Assembly: GCF_057098645.1 (NCBI RefSeq)
Contig: NZ_CM169472.1
Direction: 5' to 3' (one strand)
Length of the DNA: 64,000 bases
Position numbers and translations under genes: made by a program
Notes under the pieces: model-generated
What the model was told of the DNA's origin: nothing
Seen by the model: only the letters and a program-made list of their open reading frames with translations
Database searches by the model: none
Shown here: positions 963 to 62,811 of the stretch, in pieces
Layout of the letters: each line of letters starts with the position of its first letter
Position numbering within the stretch: the stretch's first letter is position 1

Positions 963-1127
963 GCCTTATCTCCACCTCTTCGCGTCATTACGCGATATTC
1001 ATTAAAGTGGCGAAAGCATGACAGCAATCACAAAAAAATGAAAATAACAAAAAGAGAAAACACTTTTGCCATTTTGCTAACAAACAGGAAGGAGATGCGA
1101 GGGAGAACGCGCTCCCTCGAGAGGAAA

Positions 1128-1217
1128 TCAGTGCAGCGCGGCAGTCAAACCCACGGCTACGATCAAACCGAGGACGATAATCGTTGTTACCAGTGAAAAT
1201 TTAAGGTCGGTGCTCAT
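1128..1217 (-). CDS. ynhF: 29-aa hydrophobic small membrane protein (MSTDLKFSLVTTIIVLGLIVAVGLTAALH)
   Basis: Short minus-strand ORF with an AAGGAG Shine-Dalgarno about 7 nt upstream of the ATG; single predicted TM helix; matches my memory of K-12 small protein YnhF. Confidence 0.55.
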   Translation of the reverse strand: MSTDLKFSLVTTIIVLGLIVAVGLTAALH

Positions 1218-1455
1218 CAAGTTTTCTCCTTTTTTATTACCACACAAAAAGTGATATTACGCATTTTTACACACTGTGATGAAAAAATCTCCCGTCATTT
1301 ATAATGATAAGTGTTTTTACCACTTCCCCTTTTCGTCAAGATCGGCCAAAATTCCACGCTTACACTATTTGCGTACTGGCCATTGACCCCTTCCTGACGC
1401 TCCGTGTCGTTTTTCCGGCGTACCGCAACACTTTTGTTGTGCGTAAGGTGTGTAA

Positions 1456-1471
1456 AGGCAAACGTTTACCT
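1456..1471. promoter_or_regulatory. PurR operator (PUR box) in purR 5' leader
   Basis: aGGCAAACGTTTACCt contains the GCAAACGTTT core of the PUR box; purR is known to be autoregulated. Confidence 0.55.
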
Positions 1472-1515
1472 TGCGATTTTGCAGGAGCTGAAGTTAGGGT
1501 CTGGAGTGAAATGGA

Positions 1516-10106: not shown

Positions 10107-10183
10107 GCGTTCATAGCTCAGTTGGTTAGAGCACCACCTTGACATGGTGGGGGTCGTTGGTTCGAGTCCAATTGAACGCACCA
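10107..10183 (+). tRNA. valV: tRNA-Val (anticodon GAC)
   Basis: GCGTTCATAGCTCAGTTGGTTAGAGC...TTCGAGTCC...CGCACCA cloverleaf with encoded CCA. Confidence 0.92.
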
Positions 10184-10187
10184 TCCT

Positions 10188-10264
10188 GCGTCCGTAGCTC
10201 AGTTGGTTAGAGCACCACCTTGACATGGTGGGGGTCGGTGGTTCGAGTCCACTCGGACGCACCA
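10188..10264 (+). tRNA. valW: tRNA-Val (anticodon GAC), tandem copy
   Basis: GCGTCCGTAGCTCAGTTGGTTAGAGC...GGACGCACCA, 4 nt after valV. Confidence 0.92.
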
Positions 10265-10371
10265 GATTTTCTTAATCTGGTCTTCTACTTTTTCCCTCTG
10301 CTTCTTCTCTGTATCCAATACGTTAAAAGATTTACACTGTCTTCGTATGCGTTATCAGAAGGAGAATCGCT

Positions 10372-10677
10372 ATGGCAACTTTGTTACAACTTCATTTTTC
10401 TTTCAATGGCCCATTTGGCGACGCAATGGCTGAGCAGCTTAAACCGCTTGCTGAGTCGATTAATCAGGAACCTGGTTTTCTGTGGAAGGTATGGACCGAA
10501 AGTGAAAAGAACCACGAAGCCGGTGGGATCTACCTTTTCACTGATGAAAAAAGCGCCCTTGCCTATCTGGAAAAACACACTGCCCGACTGAAAAATCTCG
10601 GCGTTGAGGAAGTTATCGCCAAAGTTTTCGATGTCAATGAGCCACTGAGTCAAATCAATCAGGCAAAACTCGCCTGA
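10372..10677 (+). CDS. ydhR: Putative monooxygenase YdhR
   Basis: 101-aa [27 protein letters not shown]... Confidence 0.9.
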
Positions 10678-27472: not shown

Positions 27473-27841
27473 CTATACCCCAAAGCTTTCGCCACAGCCA
27501 CATTCATTCTGGGCTTTAGGGTTGTGAAATTTGAATATCTGATTAAGTCCTTCACGAACGAAATCGACTTCCGTGCCATCAATAAACGGCATCGCTTGCA
27601 GCGGGACAAACAGCTTCGCGCCGTCGTGTTCAAACAGCAGATCGTCTTTGTCCGGCTCGCTAACACTGTCGAGCACATAGCCAAAGCCCGCGCAGCCCGT
27701 TTGCTTCACACCTAAGCGCACGCCGACCATACCTGGCTGCTTTGCCACCAGCTCGCGGATGTGTATCGCCGCTGCGGGTGTCAGCGTTAAGCCTTGCCAG
27801 GCGAAATCCTGTGGGTTAAAGGTTCCTGAATGCATGTCCAT
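27473..27841 (-). CDS. sufA: Fe-S cluster A-type carrier SufA
   Basis: 122-aa ORF ending ...CGCGESFGV. Confidence 0.95.
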
Positions 27842-27884
27842 CGATTTACCTCACTTCATCGCTTTCAGCGTATAACAGCATGTT

Positions 27885-27903
27885 AGTGATAATGATTATC
27901 AGT
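27885..27903. promoter_or_regulatory. Fur box in the sufA promoter
   Basis: GTGATAATGATTATCAG matches the GATAATGATAATCATTATC Fur consensus, about 45 bp upstream of the sufA start. Confidence 0.6.
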
Positions 27904-28121
27904 TCAACCCAGCAAACGCAGGGGCTTTACCGTAAAACATGCTTTTTGCCTGCTTTTAATAAGCATAGACCCTGATGTGTGGGTTAACAGGCACGCTAAG
28001 AATTAGGTATCTCATTGTTAGATAATGGTTATTATCTAAGGAGCATTAAGGCTGTGATGAAAAAGAAAAGTTGTATTGAAAATGACTATTTAAGAGATAG
28101 GTAAAAAAGTGCAGCATTCAG

Positions 28122-28195
28122 AAATAAGAAAACCCTTAAGTCTGTGCGACACAGGCTTAAGGGTTTCTACCCCATCCGGCGCTTATCTCCGGCAC
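28122..28195 (-). ncRNA. rydB: Candidate small RNA RydB (structured RNA ending in an intrinsic terminator)
   Basis: Minus strand reads ...AAACCCTTAAG-cctgtgtcgcacagaC-TTAAGGGTTTTCTTATTT, a hairpin plus U-tract; the sufA-ydiH intergenic position matches my memory of rydB; 5' end approximate. Confidence 0.4.
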
Positions 28196-28388
28196 TCTCA
28201 GTGGCTTAGCTCTTGAAGGGGCGATAAGAATAATCTCATAAAGCTAACCCGCCGTTTTAACACAAACTGCGATTAGTATTATTTTTGAACAATATCAGGC
28301 GGGTAGATAAGCAGTATTAAGAAGGTCATCGAACCTGGACGGAGGTTAATCCAGGTCGATTTGGCGAACTTGCGGCATTAAGTCAGGA

Positions 28389-28577
28389 TCAATGCACGCC
28401 CAGACGCCAGGCAAAGTAGATTTCTTCTTTTAATTCAGCAGAAGAGAGAGTAAGCAGGTCAGCAAATTCAAGTTCTAGTTGTTTCAGACGTTTGAGATAT
28501 TGGGCAGGTGAAAGATTGCTCTGGTCACGGCGTAAAAATTCAATGGCCAGCTGGGTGGGATCAAGTTGAGTAGACAT
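28389..28577 (-). CDS. ydiH: Small protein YdiH
   Basis: 62-aa ORF MSTQLDPTQLAIEFLRRDQ... with GAGGA Shine-Dalgarno; longer upstream start rejected. Confidence 0.8.
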   Translation of the reverse strand: MSTQLDPTQLAIEFLRRDQSNLSPAQYLKRLKQLELEFADLLTLSSAELKEEIYFAWRLGVH

Positions 28578-28676
28578 AGCATCCTCGCTTTTAGACAAGA
28601 CCTGCACAGTATACCACCGTTTACTGTGCAGATAATGACCAAAAGCAATATGCGTCACACTTTTCTGGTGACAACG

Positions 28677-29087
28677 TCACAAAATGGCGGTCGTCAATCG
28701 TGACGAACAGCACAAACGCCCTTTCTCATCGAAGATTTCAATCTGCCAGACCTGGTGACGCGAACCGAGATGCAACGGTTTGCATACGCCGCGTACCCGC
28801 CCTTCTCGTGCCGAGCGGACGTGGTTAGCATTGATTTCCAGACCAACCACTTTTTGCTCACCTTCGGTACATAAATAACCGGCAACGGAACCGATACTTT
28901 CGGCCAGTACCACGGATGCACCTCCATGTAGCAACCCGAAAGGCTGCTTTGTCCGCGAGTCTACTGGCATTGTCGCTTCAAGGGTGTCATCACCAATATG
29001 TTCAAAGCGAATATCCAGTAACCCCACCATGTTTCCTTCACCCATGGCATTCAGTGCTTCCAGGGTGATTTTTCGTTTCCATATCAT
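28677..29087 (-). CDS. menI: 1,4-dihydroxy-2-naphthoyl-CoA thioesterase MenI (YdiI), hotdog fold
   Basis: 136-aa ORF MIWKRKITLEALNAMGEGNMVGLLDIRFEH... Confidence 0.9.
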   Translation of the reverse strand: MIWKRKITLEALNAMGEGNMVGLLDIRFEHIGDDTLEATMPVDSRTKQPFGLLHGGASVVLAESIGSVAGYLCTEGEQKVVGLEINANHVRSAREGRVRGVCKPLHLGSRHQVWQIEIFDEKGRLCCSSRLTTAIL

Positions 29088-33826: not shown

Positions 33827-33931
33827 ACGGTTATAAATCAACATATTGATTTATAAGCATGGAAATCCCCTGAGTGAAACAACGAATTGCTGTGTGTAGT
33901 CTTTGCCCATCTCCCACGATGGGCTTTTTTT
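33827..33931 (+). ncRNA. rprA: Small regulatory RNA RprA
   Basis: ACGGTTATAAATCAACATATTGATTTATAAGCATGGAAATCCCCTGAGTGAAACAACGAATTGCTGTGTGTAGTCTTTGCCCATCTCCCACGATGGGCTTTTTTT recognised as RprA, ending in a terminator hairpin and T-run. Confidence 0.9.
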
Positions 33932-34069
33932 TAACATTTTTCCGCTTCGCTACCTCGCCCCTCACTCTTTCCAATAATGTTGCACAAGATACTGTGACTC
34001 TCTTCAAGCCGTCAGCAAGCTGATAATGTTATTTATATTTTATTGTTTATTTCATGCAGCCATTACACG

Positions 34070-58608: not shown

Positions 58609-58670
58609 GGTATCCGTTCTGCTGAAGTGTCATGGCGTTGATTTTACGGTGACTCTTCGACAGTGAAAAG

Positions 58671-58696
58671 AAAAAAGGCCGCAGAGCGGCCTTTTT
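58671..58696 (-). terminator. Rho-independent terminator after ihfA
   Basis: On the minus strand GGCCGC-tct-GCGGCC followed by TTTTTT. Confidence 0.7.
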
Positions 58697-58708
58697 AGTT
58701 AGATCAGA

Positions 58709-59008
58709 TTACTCGTCTTTGGGCGAAGCGTTTTCGACCCGGCTTTTTAACTTCTGCCCGGGTCTGAAGGTCACCACGCGCCGTGCTGTAATGGGAATAT
58801 CCTCGCCCGTTTTCGGGTTACGTCCCGGGCGTTGATTCTTATCACGCAGATCGAAGTTACCAAAACCAGAGAGTTTCACCTGTTCGCCGTTTTCCAGAGC
58901 GCGACGGATCTCTTCGAAAAACAGTTCAACCAGTTCTTTGGCATCCCGCTTGCTAAGCCCAAGCTTATCAAACAGATATTCTGACATTTCAGCTTTTGTA
59001 AGCGCCAT
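58709..59008 (-). CDS. ihfA: Integration host factor alpha subunit
   Basis: 99-aa [55 protein letters not shown]... Confidence 0.97.
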
Positions 59009-62440: not shown

Positions 62441-62608
62441 TTAGAGCCTATCCCATCAGGCTATTTTACTTGCCATTTTGGTCCCGGGCAGTGCTCGAAA
62501 TCCTCACGTACTTAAGTACGCTCCGGTTTCTCCGCACTGGCCGTATCCAGACTGGCTGCGACAATTACGCCTGATAGACTGGCTTTTTATTTTTCAAAAC
62601 GCGCATAC

Positions 62609-62634
62609 AAAAAAAGCCTCCACTGGGAGGCTTT
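62609..62634 (-). terminator. pheST attenuator terminator
   Basis: On the minus strand AAAGCCTCC-cagt-GGAGGCTTTTTTT directly downstream of the pheM leader peptide. Confidence 0.7.
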
Positions 62635-62680
62635 CAGGCGCTGTTTTCCGTTTCTCTTCTCACGCGCTAGCCTCCTGGAT

Positions 62681-62725
62681 TCAGGTGCTAAAGTAAAAAA
62701 AGAAGCGGAAAATAGCAGCATTCAT
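62681..62725 (-). CDS. pheM: pheST operon leader peptide ([14 protein letters not shown])
   Basis: 14-codon minus-strand ORF with five Phe codons, followed by the attenuator hairpin. Confidence 0.85.
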
Positions 62726-62811
62726 TGCTTGCGTTACCTTTTGGTACTCTTCAAAAGACCTTTATTGAAAAGGCTACGGCGATAAAAGTCAATGTTTTGA
62801 TGGCGTTGAAA

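Follow-up and report, generated by a model that had tools for sequence, protein, structure and literature searches.

The window, by which we mean the whole stretch of DNA analysed (64,000 nt), carries the small RNA gene rydB on its minus strand, in the spacer between ydiH and sufA. The locus is the E. coli rydB gene already catalogued under that name, so that the RydB call made from the bare sequence is correct but not new. With a probability of roughly 85%, we explain the locus as a gene whose transcript starts near G28222, is terminated by the hairpin downstream of the RNA body, and accumulates as a species of about 61 nt, ending at 28162, after the hairpin has been removed. According to this explanation, a conserved extended -10 promoter would direct initiation at or near G28222, and the polymerase would pass through a conserved core of about 55 nt and stop at the hairpin and U-tract (28167..28120) to give a primary transcript of about 100-105 nt. 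A ribonuclease would then remove the hairpin from the terminated precursor, leaving the species of about 61 nt that ends at 28162, and the terminator would shield the suf control region from read-through originating at a very active rydB. The features that the account relies on are these, in window coordinates:

27473-27841, minus strand: sufA, flanking the spacer
27882-27900: Fur-box-like site GTTAGTGATAATGATTATC just upstream of sufA, with three mismatches to the 19-nt consensus, 0 expected
28120..28132, minus strand: U-rich tract of the putative terminator, UUUUCUUAUUUCU, 10 U in 13 nt, read from the sequence
28129..28167, minus strand: putative terminator hairpin, the feature flagged by the sequence-only reading, assigned from fold energy, covariation and RepRanger
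28162..28222, minus strand: RydB RNA body, or conserved core, placed by the full-length RF00118 match and the K-12 Term-seq 3' end
28167..28234, minus strand: equivalent of the 68 nt annotated as rydB (ncRNA, b4430) in K-12, NC_000913.3 1764713-1764780
28230..28238, minus strand: putative extended -10 element TGAGATTAT, lying in a conserved block
28255..28284, minus strand: conserved upstream block AATAATACTAATCGCAGTTTGTGTTAAAA, about -62 to -33, which travels with the gene
28389-28577, minus strand: ydiH, flanking the spacer

An Rfam scan of the whole window at the gathering threshold, a search proposed by the sequence-only reading as a check on its RydB candidate, matches the rydB covariance model RF00118 to 28222..28162 on the minus strand. 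The match spans the full model (1-61 of 61) and scores 81.6 bits (E = 9.2e-18), compared with a gathering score of 50 bits. A permissive Rfam scan of the spacer returns, beyond rydB, only chance hairpin matches to microRNA precursors, and this result together with the full-length match identifies the locus as rydB. All 68 nt annotated as rydB in K-12 are identical in the window by alignment. Across the 372-column alignment of the spacer to K-12, the differences amount to two single-base indels and one substitution, every one of them outside rydB. The gene order ydiH-rydB-sufA, with all genes on the same strand, is likewise that of K-12. Compared with the catalogued RydB (Rfam RF00118; b4430; synonyms tpe7 and IS082), the locus has the same sequence, the same strand and the same place between ydiH and sufA; the biology is the same, and coordinates and annotation alone differ. 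The sequence-only reading had put the RNA element at 28100-28200. Its choice of RydB stands, on the strength of the RF00118 match and the identity to K-12, but the hairpin that it flagged is better described as a terminator 3' of the RydB body, and an interval that covers this hairpin cuts off the 5' 22 nt of RydB.

RefSeq annotates sufB, sufA, ydiH, menI and ydiJ around the spacer, all on the minus strand, and places no feature between sufA and ydiH. Neither in the O145 lineage nor in the sampled E. coli genomes does automatic RefSeq annotation include rydB, which is named only in the curated K-12 record; without a covariance-model search, the spacer therefore appears to contain nothing. An 851-nt slice around the locus is 100% identical to E. 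coli O145:H28 chromosomes. The slice around rydB occurs in 5421 of 5426 complete E. coli genomes, as a single-copy sequence with a median of one place per genome, and the E. coli copy is non-prophage. The region had been described as having no protein-coding potential, and the reading frames agree: no ORF longer than 35 aa overlaps 28100-28260, where only ORFs of 20-35 aa are present. A small protein encoded in the spacer was considered and rejected, since only these short ORFs are available and the variation consists of paired compensatory changes rather than codon-like ones.

Elsewhere in the window, at 1125-1515 (minus), 10107-10261 (plus), 10226-10388 (minus), 33827-33934 (plus), 58609-58767 (minus) and 62607-62731 (minus), lie other Rfam matches above threshold. 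They are to STnc550, two tRNAs, RprA, STnc540 and the Phe leader, with in addition an HPnc0260 "antisense" match that shares positions with one of the tRNAs and probably owes its score to that tRNA.

The hairpin is as strong as had been claimed from the letters alone. An inverted repeat with 17-nt arms (28130-28146 and 28150-28166), 94% complementary and 3 nt apart, folds as minus-strand RNA from G28167 to U28129 into twelve outer pairs, a 1x1 C.A mismatch, five inner pairs and a UCG loop, for a stem of 17-18 bp. Its fold energy is -22.0 kcal/mol, compared with -8.6 +/- 2.6 for 200 dinucleotide shuffles (z = -5.2, 0 of 200 as good). The motif AACCCTTAAG..CTTAAGGGTT that forms the stem has a single occurrence in the window, with 0 expected by chance. 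The U-tract said to follow the hairpin is also present, and its first three or four U pair with an A-tract at the base of the stem. The Rfam model takes in no more than the first 5-6 nt of the 5' arm, and the K-12 annotation ends immediately ahead of the hairpin. A simple promoter and terminator scan of 27700-28800 does not call the hairpin, because its rule demands an uninterrupted stem beside a T-run, and the internal mismatch breaks this stem.

Comparison among genomes supports an RNA structure. In 27 distinct syntenic loci, from Escherichia, Citrobacter, Salmonella, Leclercia and Silvania, 93% of cells in the stem are paired, compared with 19-62% when the pairing partners are slid, and both sides change in 7 of the 17 pairs. 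Within this suf-linked clade the AACCCTTAAG...CTTAAGGGTT stem is kept, the inner stem and loop are variable, and every one of the 27 aligned loci has a T-rich tail after the hairpin. In genera outside the clade the sequence of the hairpin is not conserved, unlike that of the core, and unrelated GC-rich units of hairpin plus T-tract take its place. Counted over all genera, a hairpin (dG <= -8) with a T-rich tail lies within 70 nt after the core in 58 of 81 loci, the sequences being unrelated between genera. The preservation of pairing by compensatory changes, together with the substitution of unrelated hairpin and T-tract units in other genera, leads us to read the hairpin and U-tract as the intrinsic terminator of rydB. 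Pair counts alone do not discriminate the strands, with 14 G.U and 30 unpaired cells on the minus strand and 20 G.U and 24 unpaired cells on the plus strand; the minus strand is assigned from the U-tract and the orientation of the gene.

A near-perfect palindrome upstream of a heavily regulated promoter might instead be a site for a protein acting on suf at the DNA level, or a REP-like element, with no role as RNA structure. We regard this as highly improbable, since the inner stem and loop vary between species with pairing kept, and a sequence-specific protein site would not tolerate such changes. As for a REP-like element, the motif has no second copy in the window, rydB is a single-copy locus in E. 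coli, and the RepRanger table enters rydB under Rho-independent terminator (RIT), not under REP. Read as a terminator, the element shares with other Rho-independent terminators a stable stem-loop followed by a U-rich tract, an upstream A-tract that pairs with the first U residues, and compensatory changes. It differs in that its stem is long, at 17-18 bp, and rather A/U-rich at the base, and in that the steady-state RydB 3' end lies inside the 5' arm, not at the U-tract.

The element had been placed between sufA and ydiH, upstream of the Fur-regulated suf promoter, and the Fur-box-like site at 27882-27900 agrees with that placement. This site is consistent with the known control of suf by Fur. 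The suf control region begins a few tens of bases beyond the hairpin. Since the suf promoter, controlled by Fur and OxyR, lies about 250 nt downstream of the hairpin and on the same strand, the terminator should shield suf from read-through. In the same region, a perfect 9-nt inverted repeat, TTAGATAAT/ATTATCTAA, with 4 nt between its arms, lies at 28018-28039 (z = -4.6 as RNA). Rich in A/T, this repeat precedes the start codon of sufA by about 180-200 nt and looks similar to a Fur or IHF-type site. The IHF site of the suf promoter lies around these positions.

Such a location raises the question of whose transcription is stopped. The hairpin might serve mainly to terminate or insulate transcription arriving from menI-ydiH, and thereby to protect suf, its adjacency to RydB being secondary. 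All the genes are on the minus strand with the hairpin between ydiH and the suf control region, and the clade in which sufA lies downstream of rydB is precisely the one that keeps the hairpin in its long, 17-bp form. However, a separate hairpin directly follows ydiH, at about 28328-28360 (z = -2.2), and RydB homologs with neither ydiH nor sufA nearby also have a terminator directly after the core. We consider it somewhat unlikely that insulation is the main role; such a role is nonetheless compatible with service as the rydB terminator and does not exclude it. The separate hairpin, CGACCUGGAU...GUCCAGGUUCG at 28328-28360 on the minus strand, begins directly past the ydiH stop codon, has no clear U-tract, and is possibly a structure of the ydiH 3' end; the z score given for it belongs to an 83-nt stretch.

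Evidence for the 3' end of the RNA comes from K-12. Published Term-seq data (Adams et al. 2021, PMC7815308, Supplementary file 1) include a 3' end labelled rydB at 1764708 on the minus strand. This position corresponds to 28162 of the window, where the Rfam model ends, 5-6 bases inside the hairpin's 5' arm. Under two growth conditions this end has average counts of 2.17 and 4.14 million; the tRNA aspV, by comparison, has 3.5 million (PMC7815308). In the curated Term-seq lists for K-12 from the same study, the equivalent of 28162 is the only end given for rydB, and none is found at the U-tract. Each 61-nt string in the table has its 3' end at position 51, as checked on the ends of the tRNAs aspU and aspV in the same table, and the RydB terminus accordingly reads ...GGGGUAGAAACC, in a sequence that K-12 and the window share. 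Because this abundant end falls within the hairpin's 5' arm, a mature RydB of about 61 nt most likely has no terminator; the hairpin is probably absent from the mature RNA, the terminator being removed after transcription. The missing ends at the U-tract are compatible with rapid trimming of a terminated precursor; termination itself is inferred from the anatomy of the element and from covariation.

In Salmonella, rydB is annotated at 1450415-1450519, a length of 105 nt that corresponds to the core plus the terminator. This annotation, which supports the hairpin as terminator, also speaks for a different account, in which the hairpin belongs to the functional mature RNA, and RydB is a small RNA of about 105 nt that, like the majority of base-pairing sRNAs in enterobacteria, retains the stem-loop and U-tail of its terminator. 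A terminator stem with a U-tail is the usual Hfq-binding module, and this also counts in favor of the longer RNA. We nevertheless judge it quite improbable. The K-12 3' end at the equivalent of 28162 has millions of reads, with no curated end at the U-tract; neither the Rfam model nor the K-12 annotation extends over the whole hairpin; enrichment on Hfq is weak; and outside the suf-linked clade the core is conserved where the hairpin sequence is not. The three published lengths, 68 nt in K-12, 61 nt in Rfam and 105 nt in Salmonella, may be reconciled as views of a precursor made of core plus terminator and of a processed core. The original description of RydB, by Wassarman et al. in 2001, reportedly showed a Northern band of about 60 nt.

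RNase P M1 RNA, tmRNA and 6S RNA are stable RNAs that lose their terminators by 3' processing. RydB would resemble them in being very abundant, in having a mature 3' end upstream of its terminator, and in having a terminal helix that joins its ends; we infer this resemblance from the features described here.

For the 5' end, the K-12 annotation and the RNA defined by Rfam and Term-seq disagree, the former beginning about 12 nt earlier and ending 5 nt earlier. Conservation starts abruptly at G28222, and the closing helix P1 begins there too. The putative -10 element TGAGATTAT ends 7 nt upstream of G28222, and a t(g/a)TGAGAnnATTCT block stands directly upstream of the core in most of 80 loci from a survey of species-representative genomes, non-syntenic ones included. 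Based on the abrupt onset of conservation, the start of P1 and the TGAGAnnATTCT block 7 nt upstream, and in agreement with the Rfam model, transcription most likely starts at or near G28222. The annotated K-12 5' end (28234) falls inside the conserved -10-like element and for this reason is probably about 12 nt too far upstream. Upstream conservation that extends to non-syntenic loci speaks for a promoter of rydB's own, presumably the extended -10. A consensus promoter scan of 27700-28800 does not call this promoter, as the -10-like element has no good -35; given the rules of the scan, its silence on promoter and hairpin does not weigh against either. Farther upstream, the block AATAATACTAATCGCAGTTTGTGTTAAAA, whose consensus in the RydB family is cTAATAnT-N7-GCA-N6-GTTAAA, stands at the same position in most loci and accompanies the RNA gene in chromosomal, megaplasmid or plasmid, and prophage contexts. 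It is too distant from the -10 to be a normal -35, and could be an UP element or a regulator site.

The survey applied a degenerate pattern of the RydB core to species-representative genomes. It returned 80 loci from genera that include Escherichia, Salmonella, Citrobacter, Klebsiella, Raoultella, Leclercia, Enterobacter, Pantoea, Erwinia, Mixta, Hafnia, Mangrovibacter and Shimwellia. About 45 of the roughly 55 nt of the core are invariant or nearly so across these genera, loops and junctions included; the invariant loops are AAGAGCUAAGCC and GAGAUAAGC. In the RNA body, helix P1 (G28222/CCCC with GGGG/U28169) closes a region of two internal hairpins and is followed by a short 3' tail ...GUAGAAACC. 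Among 52 distinct homologs, P1 changes on both sides in four of its five pairs, as in the variants GCTCC/GGAGC, GTTCC/GGAAC, GCCCT/AGGGC and ATCCC/GGGAT, and 97-99% of cells are paired, compared with 37-51% when the pairing partners are slid. The internal hairpins P2 and P3 show no variation in the 52 distinct sequences, P2 being partly fixed by the search pattern; covariation is thus confined to P1, and invariance neither supports nor contradicts P2 and P3. The fold stability of the core is not unusual relative to shuffled sequences (z = -0.01).

The remark made from sequence alone that the function of RydB is largely unknown is still valid, as a 2024 preprint lists no known targets or transcription factors for it. 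RydB expression has been reported as SoxR-dependent, as ppGpp-repressed in Salmonella, and as linked to CRP. AZT represses RydB 20-fold, and deletion of sspA relieves that repression 69-fold. RydB has been classed among the Hfq-independent sRNAs; its enrichment in Hfq co-immunoprecipitation is only 2.5-fold, 4 versus 10 reads. The invariant loops and junctions, the high abundance and the processed 3' end favor an RNA that binds protein. That RydB is a structured, Hfq-independent, protein-binding RNA rather than a seed-pairing sRNA is a guess, one that we hold at slightly less than even odds.

Secondary literature describes RydB as lowering rpoS expression, the reported phenotype being that of multicopy RydB. 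RydB might therefore be an antisense sRNA that pairs directly with the rpoS mRNA leader and so lowers RpoS. A full-length duplex of RydB with the 567-nt rpoS leader, in a calculation that ignores the intramolecular structure of both RNAs, scores -54.9 compared with -44.8 +/- 3.6 for shuffled sequences (3 of 300 as good), at a site about -437 from the AUG. At the best site for short interactions, however, shuffled sequences do as well in 22 of 100 cases for 14 nt and in 15 of 100 for 20 nt. The weak association with Hfq and the absence of known targets in the 2024 preprint also speak against direct pairing, which we consider unlikely.

The arrangement menI/ydiH-rydB-sufA accounts for only about 33 of the 80 genomic loci. 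The order ydiH-rydB-sufA is the same in the Escherichia, Salmonella, Citrobacter, Leclercia and Silvania loci. Outside the group formed by Escherichia, Salmonella, Citrobacter and Leclercia (loci in the series L006-L082), the core is not beside suf and is found in several unrelated contexts, among them the following:

Pantoea and Erwinia: PTS EIIC, then rydB, then LysR
Klebsiella and Raoultella: aldehyde dehydrogenase, then rydB
Mangrovibacter: a large upstream ORF (cluster c15), which looked like a periplasmic peptide-binding protein, then rydB, then an MscS-like protein

In two Pantoea genomes rydB is present twice (L008/L009 and L014/L022), and plasmids of about 500 kb in Rahnella and Pantoea carry further copies (H15-H27). 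Most Citrobacter loci (e.g. L003, L004, L012, L033, L058) have an insertion of about 1.8 kb between ydiH and rydB, with rydB remaining by sufA; the insertion carries a gene for a metallo-beta-lactamase-fold protein and a divergent LysR regulator. Two entries look like contamination or mis-binning in public records. One, a 300-nt low-coverage contig labelled Microvirga antarctica (L066), is identical in the RydB region to Salmonella enterica subsp. diarizonae (L073), and the other, a metagenome-assembled genome labelled Raoultella (L052), is identical across the RydB region to Citrobacter braakii (L033).

Three genome loci (L017, L042, L080) have a RydB-like gene between the genes for a phage Q antiterminator and an endolysin. 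A search of IMG/VR with the core pattern finds 44 viral contigs with a RydB-family gene (L083-L126). In 35 of the 44, the RydB gene lies 190-450 nt upstream of genes for holin, endolysin and Rz-like spanin, and genes for NinG and Q, from three Q families, lie upstream of viral RydB genes. All 13 loci tested against RF00118, chromosomal and prophage, pass its threshold, with scores of 55.8-81.7 bits. Among GenBank phage genomes (50,697 records), none has a RydB-like sequence, and a search of the literature available to us found no paper linking RydB to prophages.

Between Q and the RydB module, matches to the small RNA family STnc100 (RF02076, Rfam) occur at three loci:

L042, 11842-12021, minus strand: STnc100
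L108, 2320-2499, minus strand: STnc100
L090, 4653-4835, plus strand: STnc100

A promoter-like TTGACT-17-CACAAT site and a terminator stand ahead of each match. With STnc100 and RydB both located between Q and the lysis genes, the phages of these three loci would carry a string of small-RNA genes before the lysis cassette. The possibility that prophage RydB is simply the PR'-tR' leader RNA was considered and rejected for the loci examined. In two loci, a separate promoter-like site, a terminator and STnc100 intervene after Q, and in another group RydB comes after a promoter-like site, a terminator and a pair of tRNA genes. By its gene arrangement, prophage RydB appears as an additional small-RNA gene in the late leader.

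Five viral contigs (L091-L095; e.g. L091 4290-4567, minus strand) have a row tRNA-Gly(UCC)-tRNA-Asn(GUU)-RydB on one strand, in which the usual RydB promoter block is absent. In two more (L111 954-1404, L118 2399-2910), tRNA genes are adjacent to RydB in a same-strand row, with RydB followed by tRNA-Asn and tRNA-Phe, or with tRNA-Gly upstream of RydB. These arrangements suggest that the RNA may be co-transcribed with the tRNAs and processed in the manner of tRNA.

Small RNAs and tRNAs of lambdoid late leaders offer a comparison, among them the tRNA genes of Stx phages and StxS, which these phages produce from PR'-tR' and which is an Hfq-binding activator of RpoS (PMC7547250). RydB genes likewise lie between Q and the lysis genes, and both RNAs affect RpoS, but StxS activates it and RydB is reported to lower it. 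The RydB module differs also in being downstream of a separate unit of PR'-like promoter, terminator and STnc100, and the copy in the window lies outside any prophage.

The rydB call alone adds no new biology, the gene being catalogued already. What goes beyond the catalogue is confined to the relatives in phages and beside tRNA genes, and to the probable trimming of the RNA within its own terminator. The RydB 3' end is among the most abundant in published E. coli Term-seq lists, yet RydB has no known target, and the link of its relatives to phages and tRNA clusters is a concrete new handle on its function. Tentatively, and with the odds somewhat against it, we suggest that RydB, instead of being a typical base-pairing sRNA of the chromosome, may belong to a mobile family of small, highly structured, 3'-processed stable RNAs that move as promoter-core-terminator modules, of which the ydiH-sufA copy would be a long-fixed, domesticated member, with a conserved partner that matters to phage and host alike. 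If this is true, that partner would be a protein or the machinery of RNA processing or translation.
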